Assembly: GCA_016192455.1 (NCBI GenBank)
Contig: JACPUC010000026.1
Location: 198,821-262,820 of the forward strand
Length of the DNA: 64,000 nucleotides
Direction: 5' to 3'
DNA from: Candidatus Tectimicrobiota bacterium
GTDB lineage: Bacteria > JACPUC01
Positions 29,045-64,000 of this stretch are shown here, one piece after another. The notes under the pieces were generated by a model that saw nothing but the letters and a program-made list of their open reading frames with translations, did not search any database and had not been told where the DNA came from. Position numbers and translations under genes: made by a program. Every line of letters begins with the position of its first letter. The first letter of the stretch is position 1.

Positions 29045-29740
29045 ATGCAACCGAATTGCGCAAGCTGTAAGTCGACCACCGACTGTCATTGGAGCTCATT
29101 GAACGACAAGCTCATCGAGGACCTGGTTCACCAGAGCAGCGTGCGCAGCTATGCCAAGAAGCAATACATCTTCCATGAATCGGATCCGGTGCATGGCTTG
29201 TACATCCTGTGCGAAGGCCTCGTGAAGCTCATCAAGACCACCGCCAACAGCCGCCAGGTCATCGTCAAGCTGGTATATCCCGGGGAACTTCTCGGGGGCC
29301 TCTTCTTCCTGAACGGCAACGACGCCTCCTTCTCCGCCCAGGCGGTGGAAGACTCCTCCATCTGCTTCACGCATCGCAGCTACATCGAGCAGGTACTGCT
29401 GCGCGACGCCAACCTCTCTCTCAACCTCCTCACCTACTTCAACGAACAACTCTGCAACAGCTTCCAGACCCTGTGCGAGTTTGCCGCCTTCGACGTGGAG
29501 CAGCGCCTCGCCGGCACCCTGCTGCGCTTTGCCGAGCACTACTCCGTGGAGACGCGGGACGGCTTGGCCTGTCATCTGCCGCTGCGGCGCGGCGAGCTGG
29601 CCGAGTTCCTCGGCACCACCGCCGAGACCACAGCGCGCACCCTCAGCAACTTGAAGCGGCAGCAGATCATCGCCCTGGAACGGCGCACCATCACCTTCCT
29701 GGATGTTGACCGCCTGCGGGCCATTGCCAAACGCTCCTGA
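29045..29740 (+). CDS. fnr: FNR-type Crp/Fnr transcriptional regulator
   Basis: N-terminal C-x2-C-x5-C (CASCKSTTDC) plus a central SSICF Cys, and HTH LGTTAETTART. Confidence 0.82.
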   Translation: MQPNCASCKSTTDCHWSSLNDKLIEDLVHQSSVRSYAKKQYIFHESDPVHGLYILCEGLVKLIKTTANSRQVIVKLVYPGELLGGLFFLNGNDASFSAQAVEDSSICFTHRSYIEQVLLRDANLSLNLLTYFNEQLCNSFQTLCEFAAFDVEQRLAGTLLRFAEHYSVETRDGLACHLPLRRGELAEFLGTTAETTARTLSNLKRQQIIALERRTITFLDVDRLRAIAKRS

Positions 29741-54678: not shown

Positions 54679-55338
54679 ATGTCCGAGCGCTACGACATCA
54701 CCATGTATATTTGCTACGTCTGACCCTACGCCGCCCGGGCCACGGAGTGGCTCTATCGGCTGCAAGAGAAGTGGGGCGAGAACCTCAACGTCACCTACAA
54801 GTCGTTCGTCCTGGAGCAGGCCAACTCGCGCCGCGAGCCGGAGTGGAAGGTCTGGCTCGACCGCTACTTCCCGAGCCGCGACCTGCCCCCCCTGGAGGCC
54901 GCGAAGTGCGCCGCCATGCAGGGCGAGGAGGCGTTCCGGGCCTATAACATCCGCCTCTTCCGCGCCTGCCATCAGGAGAAGCTGGAGATCACCAACCAGC
55001 TCGTGCTCTACGAACTGGCGAAAGAGGTCGGGCTGGACGCCGCGTGCTTCTCCGCCGACCTGCGCAGCAAGCGGGCGCGCGAGCTGGTGGCCCAGGAGCA
55101 CGAGGAGGCGGTGGCGCGCTACGGCCTCTTCGGCGTGCCGACGATCATCTTCGAGGAGCGCGAGGCGGTCTTCGTCAAGCTCGAGCCGGGCGACTGGGAG
55201 GGGACGGACGACGAGGCGCTCTTCCGGGACATCGCAAAGATGGCCACGCGCTACCCGAAGCTCCTGGAGCTGAAGAAGCCGGACTCCGAAGTGCTGGCCA
55301 GGAAGTCCGCCGAGAAGTACGCCAAGCGCCAGGCGTAA
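54679..55338 (+). CDS. DsbA/FrnE-like thioredoxin-fold selenoprotein, CxxU (Sec at codon 15, TGA 54721-54723)
   Basis: AGAGGAG RBS, then MSERYDITMYIC-Y-V-TGA-PY. The frame continues without a stop into the tracked ORF 54916-55338 (GVPT cis-Pro loop). A SECIS-like hairpin lies 20 nt after the TGA. Confidence 0.85.
54737..54753 (+). promoter_or_regulatory. bacterial SECIS-like stem-loop
   Basis: GGGCCAC-GGA-GUGGCUC: a 7-bp stem with one G-U pair and a G-initiated apical loop starting 20 nt after the UGA. Confidence 0.6.
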
Positions 55339-55537
55339 CGTCGTTGCCGCCCAGCCTCCGCCGGCGCCCTTCTGGCACAACGTCTCCCTGCGACGCCTAC
55401 CAGCCGCCTCGCCGCCGCGAGCGGCTGGTAGGCTGTGTGCGCCTTCCGCCGAGCGCAACCGACTGTTACGCCCCATCGCTCCCGCCCACTTCCCATCACC
55501 TGTTTCCAGCGAAGTCTCCCTCCACGACTCCAAACAC

Positions 55538-55568
55538 CGTGGGAGTTCGAGCCGCTCCTTCGGCGCCA
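55538..55568 (+). other. degenerate tRNA-3'-end-like sequence, possible att remnant
   Basis: CGTGGGAGTTCGAGCCGCTCCTTCGGCGCCA resembles a tRNA-Leu T-arm/acceptor end, but the T-stem does not pair fully. It sits at the composition shift. Confidence 0.25.
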
Positions 55569-55604
55569 GAAATTCCTTGTAAGCTATTAACATTCAAGGA
55601 GATA

Positions 55605-55955
55605 TTAGAGTACATGGTTGTGGGAGTTTGTGCGGAAGTCCTGCGGCAATGTTCCACGTGGAACATCGGTTTGAGTTGTGCTGATCATCTGCCTCGCTGC
55701 CACCAGTTTGAGTACGCCTCCGAGGCTGGAACGGAGTACAACCTCCTGTTGTTCAGTCCGTGGTTTCCGGCATCCGCATCCTCCAACGTCGTGCCAAACC
55801 GTTGCTGCGTACCGCCAGGGCATCCCGCCTGTCTCCGTCCTCAACATCTTCACCAGCCCGCCTGAGGCTGTTACAACCAAGATCACCGTGTCCAACGCAT
55901 AGCCTTCGGCCTTGGTGATCACGAGTTCTTTAAGGTCCGGATTCTGGGGTTCCAT
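55605..55955 (-). CDS. hypothetical protein or gene remnant downstream of arsC
   Basis: Same strand as the ars operon and starts 37 bp after arsC; no recognisable motif. Confidence 0.3.
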   Translation of the reverse strand: MEPQNPDLKELVITKAEGYALDTVILVVTASGGLVKMLRTETGGMPWRYAATVWHDVGGCGCRKPRTEQQEVVLRSSLGGVLKLVAARQMISTTQTDVPRGTLPQDFRTNSHNHVL

Positions 55956-55991
55956 GAGGCGAAGGACGCCTGAAGGGGATGAGCCCTTTTC

Positions 55992-56402
55992 TCACAGCCG
56001 CGCGAGTAATGTCTCCACCTTGTCCCGGATCATATCTCGGATGCTGCGGAAGTCCTTGAATGCCATCTCTTTCGGATCAGGAATGTGCCATTCTTCCCGG
56101 ATTTTTGCTGGTACGAACGGGCAGGCGTCCCCGCAACCCATGGAGATGACGGCATCGTACTCGTTCATCGGAATCTCGGCGAGGGACTTGGAGCTATGGA
56201 TGGAAAGGTCGTAACCGACCTCGTTCATGGCTTCGATGGCTTTCTGGTTGAGGCGCCCGGAAGGCCGTGCTCCAGCGCTCCAGGCCTCGATCCGTGCACC
56301 GCCGAGCATCCGAGCGAAGGCTTCAGCCATCTGACTCCGGTTGGAGTTCTCGATGCAGACGAAGAGGACGCGCTTGCGACCGCGGGAGTCGTTGGGCTGC
56401 AT
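55992..56402 (-). CDS. arsC: LMW-PTP-fold arsenate reductase
   Basis: VLFVCIENSNRSQMAE P-loop, SAG and MGCGDACP; follows acr3. Confidence 0.85.
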   Translation of the reverse strand: MQPNDSRGRKRVLFVCIENSNRSQMAEAFARMLGGARIEAWSAGARPSGRLNQKAIEAMNEVGYDLSIHSSKSLAEIPMNEYDAVISMGCGDACPFVPAKIREEWHIPDPKEMAFKDFRSIRDMIRDKVETLLARL

Positions 56403-56422
56403 CGTTCTTCCTCAACGACGTA

Positions 56423-57541
56423 TCAAGCGGGGGTCGAAACGGTGAAGAACATGCGCTGGAACCGGAGCGCCACGTTCACCAGGCTGATGAGCACGGGCAC
56501 CTCCACCAATGGACCGACGACCGCCGCGAAGGCGGCGCCCGAGTTGATGCCGAAGACAGCGACCGCCACGGCGATGGCCAGCTCGAAGTTGTTGCTGGCC
56601 GCGGTGAACGACAAGGCGGTCGTCTTCGCGTAGTCCGCTCCGATCTTCCTGCCCATCCAGAAGGAGACCAGAAACATCAGCACGAAGTAGAACAGCAATG
56701 GCACGGCAATCCGCACGACATCCAGCGGAATCCCCACGATCAGCTCGCCTTTCAGGCTGAACATCACCAGGATTGTAAAAAGGAGCGCGGCCAGCGTAAT
56801 CGGGCTGATCTTCGGGATGAACGACCTCTCGTACCAGGTCTTGCCCTTCACCTTCAGCAGCACAAAGCGCGTGATCATGCCGGCAAGGAAGGGAATGCCG
56901 AGGTAAATGAAGACGCTCTCCGCGATCTGGCCCATGCTCACCTTGACGATGCTCCCGCTCAGGCCGAAGAGTGGAGGGAGGACCGTGATGAAGACGTACG
57001 CGTAGGCGCTGTAGAAGAGTACTTGGAAGACACTGTTGAACGCTACTAGGCCGGCGGCGTACTCGGTGTCCCCCTCGGCCAGTTCGTTCCACACGATGAC
57101 CATTGCGATGCAGCGCGCCAGGCCGATCATGATCAGCCCGACCATGTACGCCGGGTAACCCCTCAGGAAGAAGATCGCCAGGAAGAACATCAGCATCGGC
57201 CCGACGATCCAGTTCAGCACCAGTGAGACCCCAAGGACCTTCCAGTTGCGGAATACGTCCCTGAGTTCCTCGTATTTCACCTTCGCAAGCGGTGGGTACA
57301 TCATGAGGATCAGTCCGACGGCGATCGGGATGTTCGTCGTGCCGACTTGGAACCGGTTGATGAATGCATCGACGCTAGGGAGAGCGTAGCCGGCGCCGAC
57401 CCCCACCGCCATGCCCAGAAAAATCCACAGGGTCAGGTATCGGTCCAAGAAAGGGAGATTCGCGGCAACGCCATGGGACGACTGGCGTATGGCGCCGTCC
57501 ATGACAGACCGATTCGGTGTGGTGGTCTGAGCATCGCTCAT
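56423..57541 (-). CDS. acr3: ACR3 family arsenite efflux transporter
   Basis: [28 protein letters not shown] and [11 protein letters not shown]. Confidence 0.95.
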
Positions 57542-57909
57542 CGTGATGTCTCCTCGCAACCAGGCGGGCAGCATCCACCCGTCATGCGCAGCCTCTTCGC
57601 CCGGGCCTGGTCTCCCTCGAGCTCGGGCGCCTCCTGGAAACAACTGCCCAGACAGTCGAGCAGCTTCGCGTGGAAGCTGGTGCGAGCCTCCGTCAGCGAA
57701 TAGAAGCACCAGCGGCCGTCCTTGCGGACCTCCACCAGACCGGCTTCCCGCAGATAGCGCAGATGGCGAGAGGCCGTCGGCTGGGGAACTTGCAGCACCT
57801 CGACAAGATCCCCCACGCACATCTCGTCCTCGCGCAGCAGCAGGAGGATGCGCAGACGGATCGGGTCGGTGAACGCCCGGAACATGCGGTTAACGGCCGC
57901 GGTTCTCAT
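57538..57909 (-). CDS. arsR: ArsR/SmtB family repressor
   Basis: [30 protein letters not shown] and C-terminal CC; 4-bp overlap with acr3. Confidence 0.9.
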
Positions 57910-57927
57910 ATTCACTTATCCGAATAT
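57908..57927. promoter_or_regulatory. candidate ArsR operator
   Basis: ATATTC-N8-GAATAT inverted repeat overlapping the arsR start. Confidence 0.5.
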
Positions 57928-58347
57928 ATGTGAGGCGTGGATATCTGTCAAGGTGTCGGCTGCCGCGGGGGCACTGCAAAAGCAATGTCGTGGACTGGCC
58001 TTCGGGCACAGAACGTCCGAGACGATGGCCTGGCGTTGCGCGCGGCGTACTCGCGGCCCACCACGTCGCGCACCTTCACTTCCAGGGCCTTCCCGGCCAG
58101 TGCTGAATGGCGAGCCGCGCCAGCGAGCTCATCGGGTCTCCCCGGGGCGCCCGTGTCCGGCAGCGTCCGCTTCGTTCCCCTTGTTTGCTTTGATGATGGT
58201 TCCCTGGGCCTGGAGTAAGCCTCCTTTTTCCCCAAGGTGTCCAGCCGAAGCATACTTTATCGGGCCGAGGCTCAGCCCCCCTTGCTTGATCAATAAGTTT
58301 TAGACTTTCTCGATCATATATAGTATGCGTTATTCTTATGCTAGATA

Positions 58348-58361
58348 TTGATATCTATCAA
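58348..58361. promoter_or_regulatory. FNR box in the ars / ttr-like divergent region
   Basis: TTGAT-ATCT-ATCAA is a perfect consensus match. Confidence 0.8.
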
Positions 58362-59025
58362 GTTTTTTCATTTTCACCGTCATTACATTAGCATCGAGTT
58401 CCTGGGAAGGGCGCAGGGTCGCCTACCTACATGGGTCTCCGGGCTCCGATGTTCGACTGCCTCAGCCAATGAAGCTAAGAATCTAGCCAGGCGTTGAAGC
58501 AGACTCCGCAGTGCTTAGGAGAAAGGCTGAAGAGAGAGTCCATCTCTACCGCTCTTCCGGGCGGTTTGTTCGCGGTGTCAAGCATGGCGAGGCGTCACGC
58601 TCCTGCTAGCCGCAGTGCTTTTCCTCTTTCCTTGATAGCACAACATCCTGCTATCATCGCCTGCCACGTCACTGTAGTCCGTTCTCTCCACTTGGCAAGA
58701 TCACCATTCAAGTGCGCCTCCACGATCCCATCGCAAACCCCGGTTAAAGCTAAGTCTGAACGCCCCAAATATCCTTTTAGTTTCTCATGCCTTAACTTCA
58801 AAGCACAAATTTATGAACGCCGCCTAAATTATTCACATTTCAGTGAACCATACGCACCATCCTTAGATACTTTCTCCAGCAACTCTTCCTATTCATTCCG
58901 CCGCACCATGATGTGTCAAAAAGCCGATGTTCAATATGTCAGCAGTGCCCTGTTACTCCATTGTGGTAAACTTCTCACCTGCCAATCGTTGCGTTTCCAG
59001 CGTGGTGTCAAAAAGGAGATCTCCT

Positions 59026-59793
59026 ATGCATGATACGACTCGCACGCGAAAGAAGATGGACCGCCGAACCTTCCTCAAGCGTTCACTAGCTTCGGGAGTG
59101 GCTGCGGCAACGGCGGCAGCAGCAGCCCCTAGCAACGCTGCGGAGCCGAAGGCCCACCCGAGCAAACAGCTCGGCATGGTGATCGACCTGAAGAAGTGTA
59201 TTGGGTGTAATGCTTGCACGATCTCCTGCAAGAGCGAGAACCATACCCCGCCGGGGGTGGTCTACAACGTGGTGCTTGAAGAAGAAGTGGGAGAATACCC
59301 CTATGTGTCGCGGCGATTCCTGCCGCGGCCCTGCATGCATTGCAAGAATCCCTCCTGCACGAAAGTGTGCCCGGTTGGGGCCACCTATAAACGAGAGGAG
59401 GATGGCATCGTCGTTATTGACTATGATCGTTGCATCGGCTGCCGCTACTGCATTGCAGCCTGTCCTTACGACGCGCGGTACTTCGACTTCGGTGAAGAAT
59501 ATAATGCCACCCCTACGGCGTTCGACCAATCCCTTTCCCCCGAATATGGCGAGTTGCGCAAGCGGCGCAAAGGGCGTTCCCCCATCGGCAATACCCGCAA
59601 GTGCACCCTCTGTCTCCACCGGATTAAGAAAGGGCTACAACCGGCCTGCGTCGATACCTGCCTCGGTCGTGCGCGTTACTTCGGCGATGTGGCGGATAAA
59701 CAAGGGCCGTTGTGGCAGATGATCTCGAGACGCAGTCACATGCGCCTGCGCGAGGACTTGGGCAACGAACCATCTGTTTACTACCTACTGTAG
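59026..59793 (+). CDS. Tat-exported 4x[4Fe-4S] electron-transfer subunit (TtrB/SrdB/DmsB-like)
   Basis: MDRRTFLK twin-Arg signal; CIGCNACTISC, CMHCKNPSCTKVCP, CIGCRYCIAACPY and KCTLC...ACVDTC. Confidence 0.92.
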   Translation: MHDTTRTRKKMDRRTFLKRSLASGVAAATAAAAAPSNAAEPKAHPSKQLGMVIDLKKCIGCNACTISCKSENHTPPGVVYNVVLEEEVGEYPYVSRRFLPRPCMHCKNPSCTKVCPVGATYKREEDGIVVIDYDRCIGCRYCIAACPYDARYFDFGEEYNATPTAFDQSLSPEYGELRKRRKGRSPIGNTRKCTLCLHRIKKGLQPACVDTCLGRARYFGDVADKQGPLWQMISRRSHMRLREDLGNEPSVYYLL

Positions 59794-59810
59794 ACCGGGA
59801 GGTATTGGCG

Positions 59811-61094
59811 ATGGATCAAGGAATCTTGCTGCAGAACAGGACCCTGTTTCGCGGCATGCTCGGGATGATTCTCGTTGCCCTGGTGATCGGTAGCATAGGC
59901 ATGGTCATCCGATTCAGTGAAGGACTCAGGGTCACCAATCTCGGCAGCATCATTCCGTGGGGCCTGTGGGTAGGCTTCTACATTTATTTCATTGGGTTGA
60001 GCGCCGGCTCGTTCTTGCTCTCGACGCTCGTCTACGTGTTCCGCCTCGAAAAGTATGAGCCATTGGGACGGCTGGCGTTGTTCCAGGCTCTTATCTGCCT
60101 GGTGATCGGGCTGCTTTTCGTCTTCATCGACCTGGGGCATCCCTGGCGATTTTATATGGTGTACATCTCCCAGAACTGGCATTCCGTGCTTGAATGGGAA
60201 ATCCACTTCTACCTGCTCTATATCGTCTTGCTTGCCGCTGAGCTTCACCTGGTGATGCGGGAGGATTTTCGCCTCCTTGCCGAGCGCAAGCGGGGCGTCA
60301 GGCGGTTTGTATATCGCCTCTTGTCGCTCTGGGCGGATGCGCCAACTCCCCGCATCAGGGAACGTGCCGCCACCGTACTGAAGGTATGCGGAATCATTGG
60401 CATCCCCACCGCCATCGCCGTGCACGGCGGCACCGGCGCCATCTTCGCGGTCGTCAAGGCCCGACCGTACTGGTACTCCTCTCTCTTCCCCGTCATCTTC
60501 CTGGTGTCGGCGTTGGTCTCCGGGGGCGGGCTCATGCTCTTCTTGCGGGCTTTCTTCTTTAGCAACGAGACGCCGGAGGAGCGCGACATGCTTGCCGGAC
60601 TTGGAAAGATGACAGGCGGCCTGCTGGCGCTGGACCTCTTACTTCTGTCAATCGAGACGCTGGTCGGGTTCTACGGCGACATTCCAGAACACGTCGCAAC
60701 CCTGCGGATGATCATGTTCAATGGACGGTATGCCTGGGCCTTTTGGATTCTTCAAGTAGCCATCGGAACCATTCTTCCCCTCATTATCTTTCTTTCCGGA
60801 CGAGCTTCCCGATCGGTGGCGGCTCTGGGATTCGCTGGATTGAGCATTGTCGTGGGCATCGTGTCGGTGCGCATGAACATCGTCATCCCCGCGCTTGCCT
60901 TGGCCATCTTGCCGGGACTGACGGAGGCGTACCACAACATCCGGCTCGATGCAGTCTACGCCCCGAGCCTCGTTGAATGGCTTACCACCATCTTCGCCTT
61001 GGGTCTGTTCGCCTTGCTTCTCGTTGCCGGACTGCGGCTCCTGCCCCTCGGCAAGAATCGTTTTTGGCAACGGGCAACCCTCGCGGAGGAGTAA
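59811..61094 (+). CDS. NrfD/PsrC/TtrC family membrane anchor
   Basis: PWGLWVGFYIYFIGLSAG, DLGHPWR and HGGTG.IF.V..ARP.W. Confidence 0.9.
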   Translation: MDQGILLQNRTLFRGMLGMILVALVIGSIGMVIRFSEGLRVTNLGSIIPWGLWVGFYIYFIGLSAGSFLLSTLVYVFRLEKYEPLGRLALFQALICLVIGLLFVFIDLGHPWRFYMVYISQNWHSVLEWEIHFYLLYIVLLAAELHLVMREDFRLLAERKRGVRRFVYRLLSLWADAPTPRIRERAATVLKVCGIIGIPTAIAVHGGTGAIFAVVKARPYWYSSLFPVIFLVSALVSGGGLMLFLRAFFFSNETPEERDMLAGLGKMTGGLLALDLLLLSIETLVGFYGDIPEHVATLRMIMFNGRYAWAFWILQVAIGTILPLIIFLSGRASRSVAALGFAGLSIVVGIVSVRMNIVIPALALAILPGLTEAYHNIRLDAVYAPSLVEWLTTIFALGLFALLLVAGLRLLPLGKNRFWQRATLAEE

Positions 61095-61096
61095 CC

Positions 61097-64000
61097 ATGG
61101 ATAGAAAGCGCCGCAACTTCCTCAGGACAACCGCCCTTGTGGGTTCAGCCGTGGCCGTGGGCGCCAAGGTGCAGCAAGTGATGACGCGTCTGGCGTACGC
61201 TGCGCATGAACAAACAATGGGAGAGTCCACGTTCGACTACGCCCAGCAGCATGCCGAAAACCGCATCTACAGCACCTGCTTGCAGTGTCACACCGCCTGC
61301 CAGATCGCCGCCAAGATCGTCGATGAGGTATGCGTGAAGCTTGATGGGAGCCCCTACAGTCCCCAGAATCTACTCCCTCACATTGCTTACGAAACCTCTC
61401 TTCAAGAAGCGGCAAAGATTGATGGCAAGCTCTGCCCGAAAGGACAGGCCGGAATCGAGACGCTCTACGATCCTTACCGCATCAGAAAAGTGTTGAAGCG
61501 GGATGGTCCGCGTGGCTCGAACCGCTGGAAGACCATTTCGTTCGAGGATGCCATCCGCGAGATCGTGGAAGGCGGCAAGCTCTTCGCGCACCTGAACGAG
61601 CAGCAGGAGGTGGAAGGCCTGCGCTCCATCTTCGCTCTTCGCGATGCCTCGCAGGCAGCGGCGCTGGCTGCTGATATTCAGCGCCTCCGCTCAAGAACCA
61701 TCAGCCTGGCCGAGTTTCGCTCCAAGCATCGTGACGCTGCCGAGGTGCTGATCGATCCCAATCATCCAGACCTGGGCCCGAAGAACAACCAGTTCGTGTT
61801 TCTGGCGGGGCGCATCGAGCATGGTCGCAAGGAGTTCATGAATTGGTTCACGCGAACTTCCTTTGGCTCCGTGAACACAATTGAACACACCTCCATCTGC
61901 GAGCAGAGCCACCATATCGCCTACGGCCAGGTCACCGCGCAGCCGCAGGGCAAAACATGGAAGCCCGGCCTCACCCATTTGAAACCCGACGCCGCCAACG
62001 CTGAATACATCCTCTTCTTCGGCACCGGCGCCTTCGAGGCGAACTTCGGCCCCACGCCAATGGCCGAGAAGATCACCCAGGGCATGGTCGACAGGAATCT
62101 GAAGATCGATGTCGTCGACCCGCGGCTCTCCAAGACAGCCGGCAAAGCCAGCTCCTGGATCCCCATCAAGCCAGGCACCGACGGCATGCTGGCCCTGGCC
62201 ATGGCAAGCTGGATCATCTCCCAGGAGCGCTTCGACCGCCGCTACCTCGAGAATGCCAATGTGGCTGCGGCCCTGGCAGATGGCGAACCCACCTGGACGA
62301 GCGCGACTTACCTGGTGAAGCTGGAGAACGACCGACCAAGCCGCTTTGTTCGTGCCAGCGAGCTGGCTCTCGGGAAGGAGGACGAGTTCGTTGTTCTCAG
62401 CGCTGGCAAACCAACGGCGGTTCGCCCGAACGACACAAAGACCCCGATCCATGGCGACCTCTTTGCCAGCTACGGCAGAGATGGCCTTCAGGCGAAAACC
62501 TCCTTTGCCCTGTTCGCCGAACTGGCCCAAAAGACCAGCCTGGAAACGTACGCGAACCGTTGCGGCGTTGCCAAGGACGAGATCGTTCGCCTGGCTCGCG
62601 AGTTCACCAGCCATGGCAAGCGCGCCGTGGCGGAGTTTTACCGCGGTGCCGTTAAGCACACCGACGGCTACTACCAGGCGCAGGCGATCATCTCCCTCAA
62701 CCTCTTGCTGGGAAACGCGGACTGGAAGGGCGGGCTAAGCAAGGGAGGCGGCCACTGGCACGAATTCGGCGGCAAACCGGGGAACCTTTTTGATTTCAAG
62801 AAACTCAATGCCGGCGCCCTGAAGACGTTTGGCATGCCCATCTCGCGCGAGGCTTGGGCCTACGAGGAGACGACGCTTTTCGGCGGCAAGGGGTACCCGG
62901 CGCGGCGTCCCTTCTATCCCTATAGCAACAATATCTACCAAGAAGTGATCCCGTCGGGGGCCGAGGGCTACCCTTACCAAGCCAAAGTTCTCCTCCTGCA
63001 CAAGGGCACGCCGGCCTTGTCGACTCCAGCAGGACACAAGTTTATCGACCTGCTGCGCGATACCACGAAGATACCGCTGTTCATCTCCTGCGACATCGTG
63101 CTCGGAGAGACGACGATGTACGCGGACTACGTGTTTCCCGACCTCACGTATCTGGAGCGCTGGGGAACGCCGCACGTTACCCCTGATGTGCAGACGAAAG
63201 CAAGCAAGGTGCGTCAACCAGTCGTCGAACCTCTTACCGAATCCGTGACCATTGATGGTGAGGAAATGCCGATCTGCATGGAAGCCCTGCTTATCGCCTT
63301 GGGCAAGAGGCTCGGTCTTTCAGGGTTCGGTCGGGATGCTTTCGGCGCTGGAGAGCACTTCAATCGGCCCGAAGATTTCTATTTGAAAGCCGTTGCCAAC
63401 ATCGCCCATGGTGACAAACCAGGCGAGGCGGTTCCGGAGGCGAGCGATGAGGAACTCGCGCTCTTTCAGAAAGCTCGTCGTCATCTCCCCAAGTCCGTCT
63501 TTGACGAGGCACAATGGCGCAGGGCGGTTGCCGGCGATGAAGCCCGCTGGCGGCGCACCGTCTATGTGCTGAACCGCGGGGGACGCTTTGAGGCTGCCGA
63601 CAAGGCGTATACCGGGGATCGCCTAACCCATCGCTACGGAGAGATGTTCAACTTCTTCTGCGAAGAGGTGGCTTTGGGTCACAACAGCATAAGTGGAAAG
63701 CTCTTCGAAGGCTTTCCGCATCCAGAACCACCGCAGGATGCCGCAGGCAAACCTGTGAAGCAGTCGGGACACCGGTTTACCTTGCTTACCTACAAGACGA
63801 TCCACCACGGGCAGTCCCGCACCGCACCGCCAGACTACTGGCTCGCAGACCTGTTGCCGGAAAACCATGTGCTGATGAACGCCGCCGATGCGCGGAAGCT
63901 AGCCTTGAAGGCAGGGGACATTGTACGCCTCGTCTCGCAGTCAAACCGCGATGGCATGTTTGATGTCGGGGATGGCAGACGACTGGCAGTGCAGGGGAAA
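61097..64000 (+). CDS. Tat-exported DMSO-reductase-family molybdoenzyme catalytic subunit, TtrA/SrdA-like (partial; runs off the window)
   Basis: Not in the ORF track because it has no stop. Manual translation is open for 968 codons: RRNFLR signal, YSTCLQCHTAC...KLCPKG [4Fe-4S] motif, EHTSICEQSHH Mo-ligand region (Cys), VDPRLSKTA and ADYVFPD..YLE. Confidence 0.88.
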   Translation, partial: MDRKRRNFLRTTALVGSAVAVGAKVQQVMTRLAYAAHEQTMGESTFDYAQQHAENRIYSTCLQCHTACQIAAKIVDEVCVKLDGSPYSPQNLLPHIAYETSLQEAAKIDGKLCPKGQAGIETLYDPYRIRKVLKRDGPRGSNRWKTISFEDAIREIVEGGKLFAHLNEQQEVEGLRSIFALRDASQAAALAADIQRLRSRTISLAEFRSKHRDAAEVLIDPNHPDLGPKNNQFVFLAGRIEHGRKEFMNWFTRTSFGSVNTIEHTSICEQSHHIAYGQVTAQPQGKTWKPGLTHLKPDAANAEYILFFGTGAFEANFGPTPMAEKITQGMVDRNLKIDVVDPRLSKTAGKASSWIPIKPGTDGMLALAMASWIISQERFDRRYLENANVAAALADGEPTWTSATYLVKLENDRPSRFVRASELALGKEDEFVVLSAGKPTAVRPNDTKTPIHGDLFASYGRDGLQAKTSFALFAELAQKTSLETYANRCGVAKDEIVRLAREFTSHGKRAVAEFYRGAVKHTDGYYQAQAIISLNLLLGNADWKGGLSKGGGHWHEFGGKPGNLFDFKKLNAGALKTFGMPISREAWAYEETTLFGGKGYPARRPFYPYSNNIYQEVIPSGAEGYPYQAKVLLLHKGTPALSTPAGHKFIDLLRDTTKIPLFISCDIVLGETTMYADYVFPDLTYLERWGTPHVTPDVQTKASKVRQPVVEPLTESVTIDGEEMPICMEALLIALGKRLGLSGFGRDAFGAGEHFNRPEDFYLKAVANIAHGDKPGEAVPEASDEELALFQKARRHLPKSVFDEAQWRRAVAGDEARWRRTVYVLNRGGRFEAADKAYTGDRLTHRYGEMFNFFCEEVALGHNSISGKLFEGFPHPEPPQDAAGKPVKQSGHRFTLLTYKTIHHGQSRTAPPDYWLADLLPENHVLMNAADARKLALKAGDIVRLVSQSNRDGMFDVGDGRRLAVQGK

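Follow-up and report, generated by a model that had tools for sequence, protein, structure and literature searches.

Which oxyanion does a respiratory molybdoenzyme of the tetrathionate reductase (Ttr) lineage reduce when its operon stands back to back with an arsenic-resistance operon? The question is raised by a 64,000-nt stretch of contig JACPUC010000026.1 of Candidatus Tectimicrobiota bacterium (the window; positions further downstream are given as window-equivalents). Here a plus-strand operon for three subunits, B, C and A, diverges across a 1.1-kb gap (57916-59025) from arsR-acr3-arsC, a single minus-strand unit. A first-pass annotation had described an Fe-S subunit with a twin-arginine translocation (Tat) signal, an NrfD anchor and a Tat-exported molybdenum subunit with the motif HTSICEQSHH, all divergent from ars genes, and every one of these elements is present. 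We think it fairly probable that the locus encodes a respiratory arsenate reductase of the Ttr-like type, which was acquired together with an adjacent ars operon and is probably controlled by ArsR and FNR. The idea of bacterial arsenate respiration through a Ttr-like enzyme is not new, since Ttr-like arsenate reductases have already been published (PMC11462812, PMC12949373).

The catalytic subunit and its clade

Subunit A (61097-64000 on the plus strand and on the contig to 64249, with its final 83 codons, 249 nt, beyond the window end) is a Tat-exported catalytic subunit of 1050 amino acids of the type that binds Mo/W-bis(pyranopterin guanine dinucleotide) (bisPGD). It has the domains PF00384, PF04879 and PF01568, the Tat motif RKRRNFL, the cysteine pattern C61-x2-C64-x3-C68...C113 of an FS0 cluster, and HTSICEQSHH at residues 264-273. 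A maximum-likelihood tree of 91 sequences places A in a clade of 81 rows, distinct from the true-Ttr clade and backed by a Shimodaira-Hasegawa-like approximate likelihood ratio (SH-aLRT) of 100. The phylogeny of the full subunit, proposed as a check in the first-pass annotation, therefore gives no grouping with bona fide TtrA. More than 1900 proteins from many phyla match A, the closest at 59% identity and almost none with a specific name; at least 589 stretches with an A relative are found in a collection of species-representative genomes, together with thousands of metagenome proteins. When the phylum Myxococcota was scanned (401 genomes), 3 carriers were seen, and the two that were examined are not Anaeromyxobacter, given their guanine-plus-cytosine (GC) content of 66-68%.

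The segment RGRY...HSSVCAEAHK of ArrA aligns with AGRI...HTSICEQSHH of A and with T-SDEGR...HGAYCGLAYR of true TtrA, so that A and ArrA have a Gly-Arg pair, a His, a Cys and a basic residue in common. G238-R239 of A aligns with G164-R165 of ArrA, and true TtrA has no Gly-Arg. Among 27 clade members G238, R239, H264, T265, E269, S271, H272 and H273 are invariant, and C268 is nearly so. Arr, Arx and the Ttr-like arsenate reductases are all reported to have Gly-Arg, which true Ttr lacks, and the Arg of the pair corresponds to R165, which binds As(V), or arsenate, in ArrA (PMC12949373, 2026); our alignment led independently to the same discriminator. The ArrA site is formed by residues 163-166, 189, 193, 198 and 210 (PMC13685797). 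A Ttr-type subunit set combined with the Gly-Arg signature common to Arr and Arx is the combination given for Ttr-like arsenate reductases (PMC12949373), and it is what the locus has; the Arx motif XGRGWG is absent from A. An AlphaFold2 model of A (predicted template modelling score, pTM, 0.80) has the fold of the dimethyl sulfoxide (DMSO) reductase family. Its best match in the PDB by E-value is ArrA (6CZ7), its highest target-normalised TM-score is with PsrA, and no Ttr structure is among the matches. It had been suggested earlier that both gene order and motif fit Ttr rather than Arr. The B-C-A order does so, but the motif does not, being nearer to ArrA than to true TtrA.

B (59026-59793, plus strand) is a Tat-exported electron-transfer protein (PF13247, Tat motif DRRTFLK) with four Cys groups for four [4Fe-4S] clusters; its identity with TtrB is 38% and with a B protein from a Citrobacter plasmid 46%, and it scores 199 bits with the DsrO model (cut-off 200) and 187 bits with TtrB (cut-off 416). 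C (59811-61094, plus strand) is an NrfD-type quinol-oxidising membrane anchor of 427 amino acids (PF03916, 170 bits), with 31.9 bits against the TtrC model (cut-off 314). B and C are separated by 17 nt, and C and A by 2 nt.

A bona fide TtrBCA would agree with the gene order and with the Tat signals that both A and B carry, and the Salmonella-type TtrBCA/TtrSR system also has the same subunit types and a Cys ligand to Mo. We rejected this candidate on three grounds: A reaches 457 bits of the 1750 set for TtrA and neither B nor C comes near its equivalog cut-off, the clade is separate, and A has Gly-Arg. A is 29% identical to true TtrA from a reference ttrSR-ttrBCA locus (taken from a Citrobacter plasmid), its C partner has about 10 predicted helices by a crude hydropathy count and TtrC has 9 in 340 amino acids, and TtrSR is missing from the window. 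A canonical ArrAB is not encoded here either, with 99 bits for A against the ArrA model (cut-off 1600), AGRI in place of RGRY, and the order B-C-A instead of A-B. Canonical ArrA is absent from the genome as a whole, where the best match reaches 315 bits of the same cut-off. About a dozen DMSO-reductase-family catalytic subunits were seen in this genome, one match (C9:26200-27054) having an in-frame TAG.

Arsenic genes beside the reductase genes

How often homologues lie beside ars genes is a second check that had been proposed, and the linkage is not unique to this genome. Of 80 homologous loci, 7 have a true acr3 or arsA no further than 10 kb away, all seven among the 44 with at least 8 kb of upstream flank, and the linked acr3 copies are 64-73% identical to that of the window. 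To explain this distribution, the tree needs 7 or more changes of state, or at least 7 independent gains. By chance, 0.23-0.69 linked loci would be expected (P <1e-5) in the 0.92 Mb of flanks, if a general density of 1-3 ars loci per 4 Mb is assumed as the baseline. The estimate is conservative, since acr3 is above cut-off in 104 of 201 sampled genomes, and most of these have one copy. Linkage to arsenic genes, one of the marks of Ttr-like arsenate reductases, is thus seen across the homologues. The first-pass annotation had proposed a non-Arr respiratory enzyme of the Ttr/Srd lineage that is functionally tied to arsenic, and both the placement of the clade and the recurrent linkage support it. 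Of the observations that it named as speaking against the proposal, two concern sequence, tight grouping with bona fide TtrA and an ars linkage confined to this genome; neither was made, because A stands apart from bona fide TtrA and the linkage occurs in other genomes.

An Anaerolineaceae metagenome-assembled genome (locus L076) repeats the back-to-back layout of the window, with arsR-...-arsD-arsA-acr3 divergent from B-C-A. The order in Geothermobacter hydrogeniphilus and Deferrisoma camini is ars, PhnD-like binding protein, kinase, sigma-54 regulator, B and A. Their operon (L114 9258-13886 and L115 9224-13186) consists of B-A and has no NrfD anchor, and in Geothermobacter hydrogeniphilus TatA and a small cytochrome c follow, which suggests a soluble, cytochrome-linked variant. 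In a neighbouring lineage, on enterobacterial plasmids, arsRDABC diverges from B-C-A, and the gap holds an FNR site with one mismatch, TTGATAAATGTCAA. These near-identical, conjugative or mobilizable plasmids are carried by Citrobacter (including C. arsenatis), E. coli, Salmonella and Enterobacter; an example is NZ_CP037863.1 of Citrobacter arsenatis LY-1 (locus L094, 28794-34135). The plasmid enzyme resembles that of the window in its divergent arrangement, its GRI and EHTxICExSHH motifs and the FNR-like site, but its A subunit is 34% identical and sister to the true-Ttr clade on a long branch, and the pump is ArsAB, not Acr3. We found no paper on this plasmid locus, and its B-C-A operon appears uncharacterised.

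In the window, ArsR (57538-57915, minus strand; PF01022 67.6 bits, NF033788 94.3 bits against a cut-off of 55) is an ArsR/SmtB repressor, and the end of its gene overlaps the start of acr3 by 4 nt. Acr3 (56423-57541, minus strand) is an arsenite efflux permease well over its cut-off (TIGR00832, 456.5 bits against 282.8). ArsC (55992-56402, minus strand) is a cytoplasmic arsenate reductase with the low-molecular-weight phosphatase fold (PF01451, LMWPc, 77.7 bits, above the Pfam threshold) and the CX5R loop CIENSNRS; arsenate reductases are its best NCBIfam matches, yet under the equivalog cut-off (99.7 against 157.6). ArsR lacks the classical CVC metal site, having CVG instead, and ends in a Cys cluster, CCPPGC, which we take to resemble the C-terminal Cys triad of Acidithiobacillus-type ArsR. 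A second acr3, 76% identical to the window copy, lies elsewhere in the genome (contig C23).

Both operons lie on a low-GC island at about 55560-64440, past the window end at 64000. The GC fraction is 0.53-0.61 within it and 0.66-0.70 in both flanks, and the low-GC block covers the ars and B-C-A genes exactly; seen against the whole genome, about 9 kb of 58% GC is set in 4.46 Mb of 67%. The same A protein was found in three independent run assemblies, and because two of these also span arsR and the high-GC downstream gene, the block is no chimera. It is apparently a horizontally acquired island. No tRNA gene was found at either edge, and no empty site could be demonstrated in 40 compared relatives, since all of them are related at domain level only. 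At the left edge, the non-coding stretch 55537-55988 is 70-75% identical to short stretches elsewhere in the genome (C2 68672-68993, C23 293-395, C1 2921-3084); it has no Rfam family match and no convincing protein match, and may be a dispersed repeat or the remnant of an integration site. Immediately to the right of the island (L002 9696-16787, window-equivalent 64696-71787), the minus strand encodes a cytoplasmic-type molybdopterin oxidoreductase of 737 amino acids; the genes of an Rrf2 regulator, a dihaem cytochrome c and a NosZ-like nitrous oxide reductase lie in the same stretch.

The shared gap and its FNR box

A perfect FNR box had been reported between the two operons, and the palindrome is indeed there, TTGATATCTATCAA (TTGAT-ATCT-ATCAA) at 58348-58361, surrounded by an AT-rich patch. 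It is one of 6 perfect boxes of the FNR/CRP type in the 4.46-Mb genome; from base composition, we estimate that about 0.3 would be expected genome-wide and about 7e-4 in the gap. Candidate -10 hexamers stand at class II distance from the box on both strands, TACATT at 58384-58389 (plus) and TACTAT at 58325-58320 (minus). The box belongs to the second copy (58337-58362) of a 26-nt direct repeat, which also holds an overlapping 10-2-10 inverted repeat. The first copy (57927-57952), 73% identical to the second, contains an FNR-like site with two mismatches (TGGATATCTGTCAA at 57938) and overlaps the -35 hexamer of the ars operon. The predicted sigma-70-type promoter of that operon, TTGACA-17-TATATT (57923-57951, minus strand), shares 11 of 12 positions with the consensus and stands 8 nt before the start of arsR.

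A candidate protein for the box is encoded at 29045-29740 on the plus strand. This FNR-type regulator has a cyclic-nucleotide-binding (cNMP) domain, a Crp helix-turn-helix domain and, at its N-terminus, C5-x2-C8-x5-C14, the FNR cluster motif. The genome thus provides both parts of an FNR-dependent promoter, a TTGAT-N4-ATCAA site and an FNR protein with an N-terminal Cys cluster, and the regulator may act at the divergent locus. The gap itself contains no Rfam family, the molybdenum cofactor (Moco) riboswitch included, its open reading frames have no protein family, and the gap has no match to the neighbour genes of other loci.

Arsenate and the alternative substrates

We suggest that the island would be a self-contained arsenic module. 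The B-C-A complex would be a periplasm-facing, membrane-anchored molybdoenzyme, in which menaquinol would be oxidised by the NrfD-type C subunit and electrons relayed through the four-cluster B subunit to A. With Mo-bisPGD and Cys268 as metal ligand, A would then reduce arsenate to arsenite outside the cytoplasm, as a Ttr-like alternative to ArrAB. Arsenite inside the cell would release ArsR from arsR-acr3-arsC and be exported by Acr3, and arsenate that leaks in via phosphate carriers would be reduced by ArsC. An FNR-type oxygen sensor, acting through the perfect box in the common gap, would probably limit expression to anoxia.

Such a layout would parallel the divergent arr/ars island of Shewanella sp. 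ANA-3, in which a reductase operon also stands back to back with an ars operon. Murphy and Saltikov are said to have found in 2009 that the ANA-3 pair is controlled by an ArsR together with a CRP-family activator. The enzymes, however, are of different lineages: beyond the differences from ArrA given above, A of the window is about 200 residues longer, and an NrfD anchor takes the place that CymA has in ANA-3.

Closer parallels are found among the Ttr-like arsenate reductases of Anaeromyxobacter PSR-1, Geobacter OR-1, Pyrobaculum aerophilum (PAE1265) and Melioribacter roseus, which resemble the window in their B-C-A order, an A subunit of about 1050 amino acids, Tat signals on A and B, the Gly-Arg signature and a host without arrA. 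As summarised in PMC11462812, TtrA homologues of PSR-1 and OR-1 are induced about 14-fold and about 6-fold, respectively, on As(V), with As(V) reductase activity; PMC12949373 likewise summarises support from expression and activity for bacterial Ttr-like arsenate reductases. The ttr operon of M. roseus adjoins ars genes, as in the window, and its ttrA transcription rises with arsenate, with only the psr/phsA induction statistically clear (PMC5492636). The growth phenotype of Limisphaera supports the reading as well, since this carrier of a Ttr-like complex can grow on arsenate but not on selenate (PMC13608581). M. roseus and most clade members differ from the window in having a sensor set of PhnD-like protein, kinase and regulator, where the window has ArsR and the FNR box only.

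Several points weigh against an arsenate reductase. Our tree leaves out the PSR-1, OR-1, SrdA, PAE1265 and Melioribacter sequences, and no M. roseus, OR-1, PSR-1 or PAE1265 protein was among the 120 best matches of three homologue searches; two of these, seeded with Melioribacteraceae and Geothermobacter members, listed no protein of any Anaeromyxobacter. No characterised member was identified in the clade, nor did we find an experiment on any protein above about 53% identity. The RGRY motif of ArrA is half kept in A, as AGRI. In approximately 84% of the homologous loci with full flanks, ars genes are absent from the nearest 10 kb, and the co-location may partly be hitch-hiking, since ars operons often ride islands. 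An oxyanion sensor is missing from the locus itself: the PhnD-like/kinase/regulator set was not found nearby, and a search of the whole genome for PhnD-like proteins gave a single weak match, on contig C3. Between the FNR box and the downstream start codon of B there are 665 nt; because of this distance, and because nothing recognisable was found in the rest of the gap, we infer its target gene. Finally, 12 homologous loci carry an exported rhodanese, not ars, and the TtrBCA-type enzyme of Desulfolithobacter dissulfuricans was detected solely during thiosulfate disproportionation (PMC9751629).

The last two points also favour an enzyme for sulfur oxyanions, which would reduce tetrathionate, thiosulfate or polysulfide or take part in sulfur disproportionation, with ars as a fellow passenger on an accessory island. 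The best curated family match is TtrA/TtrB, the B-C-A order and the presence of Tat signals on both A and B are those of Ttr (PMC12949373), and 20 homologous loci have a LuxR-type regulator, the type found in TtrSR. We consider this reading unlikely. The Ttr models stay far under their cut-offs for all three subunits, the clade is separate from that of the true ttrSR-ttrBCA locus, and the ars linkage is well above chance and has arisen repeatedly. Gly-Arg, present in A, is absent from true Ttr (PMC12949373), and neither a rhodanese nor TtrSR was found in the window. Typical neighbours in the clade include a PhnD-like periplasmic binding protein in 31 loci and a histidine kinase in 21, accompanied by a regulator of either the sigma-54 type (21 loci) or the LuxR type; besides the rhodaneses, FmdE in 17 loci and a MoeA-like protein in 9 also recur. 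NCBIfam typing of the PhnD-like sensors did not discriminate arsenic from tetrathionate sensing. The window locus has none of these recurrent neighbours. One metagenome contig (L104 1420-16332) holds two tandem B-C-A sets of this family, preceded by a PhnD-like protein and a HAMP/sigma-54 fusion activator; a gene of the ArsR family is divergent.

It is similarly doubtful that the clade marked by CEQSHH is an enzyme class of its own with a substrate other than plain arsenate and that, jointly with this, the block of the window is a cassette moving between phyla. The clade substrate may then be, for instance, antimonate or thioarsenate, or arsenite oxidised in reverse, and the 9-kb block, which has no sensor and is tied to ArsR and FNR, may combine arsenic respiration and detoxification in one self-contained unit.

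For the enzyme of the window itself, we regard another ars-related substrate (antimonate or thioarsenate), or a reverse anaerobic arsenite oxidase feeding an adjacent denitrification-type chain, as rather improbable. ArsR/Acr3 systems act on Sb(III) too, there is a NosZ-like gene cluster 5 kb downstream, and we identified no characterised member of the clade. Arr and Arx are moreover bidirectional in vitro (PMC13685797). Against this stand the missing Arx motif, the published Ttr-like enzymes, which reduce As(V), and the want of direct evidence favouring such substrates over arsenate.

Least probable of all is respiratory selenate reduction by an SrdBCA-type enzyme, whose gene order and apparently lineage match the locus (PMC7331816, PMC10100899) in an organism that uses selenocysteine, but for which no selenium-specific neighbour was seen in 80 loci and against which the growth of Limisphaera on arsenate and not selenate also speaks. 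The first-pass annotation had seen a suggestive link in a nearby selenoprotein. We do not uphold it, since this DsbA-like gene (54679-55338) lies in the high-GC flank, outside the island, and nothing ties it to the operon.

Arsenate-respiring microbes release arsenic into groundwater and the water of paddy soils, and surveys that rely on arrA alone miss Ttr-like enzymes, which were dominant in transcription in Japanese paddy soils in one study (PMC11462812). In Geothermobacter hydrogeniphilus and Deferrisoma camini, there are cultured carriers in which the prediction is directly testable. The Tectimicrobiota locus is a compact, apparently horizontally acquired example of a reductase operon and a detoxification operon travelling together, and the repeated, independent ars linkage and the invariant Gly-Arg strengthen the case for a widespread clade that deals with arsenic.

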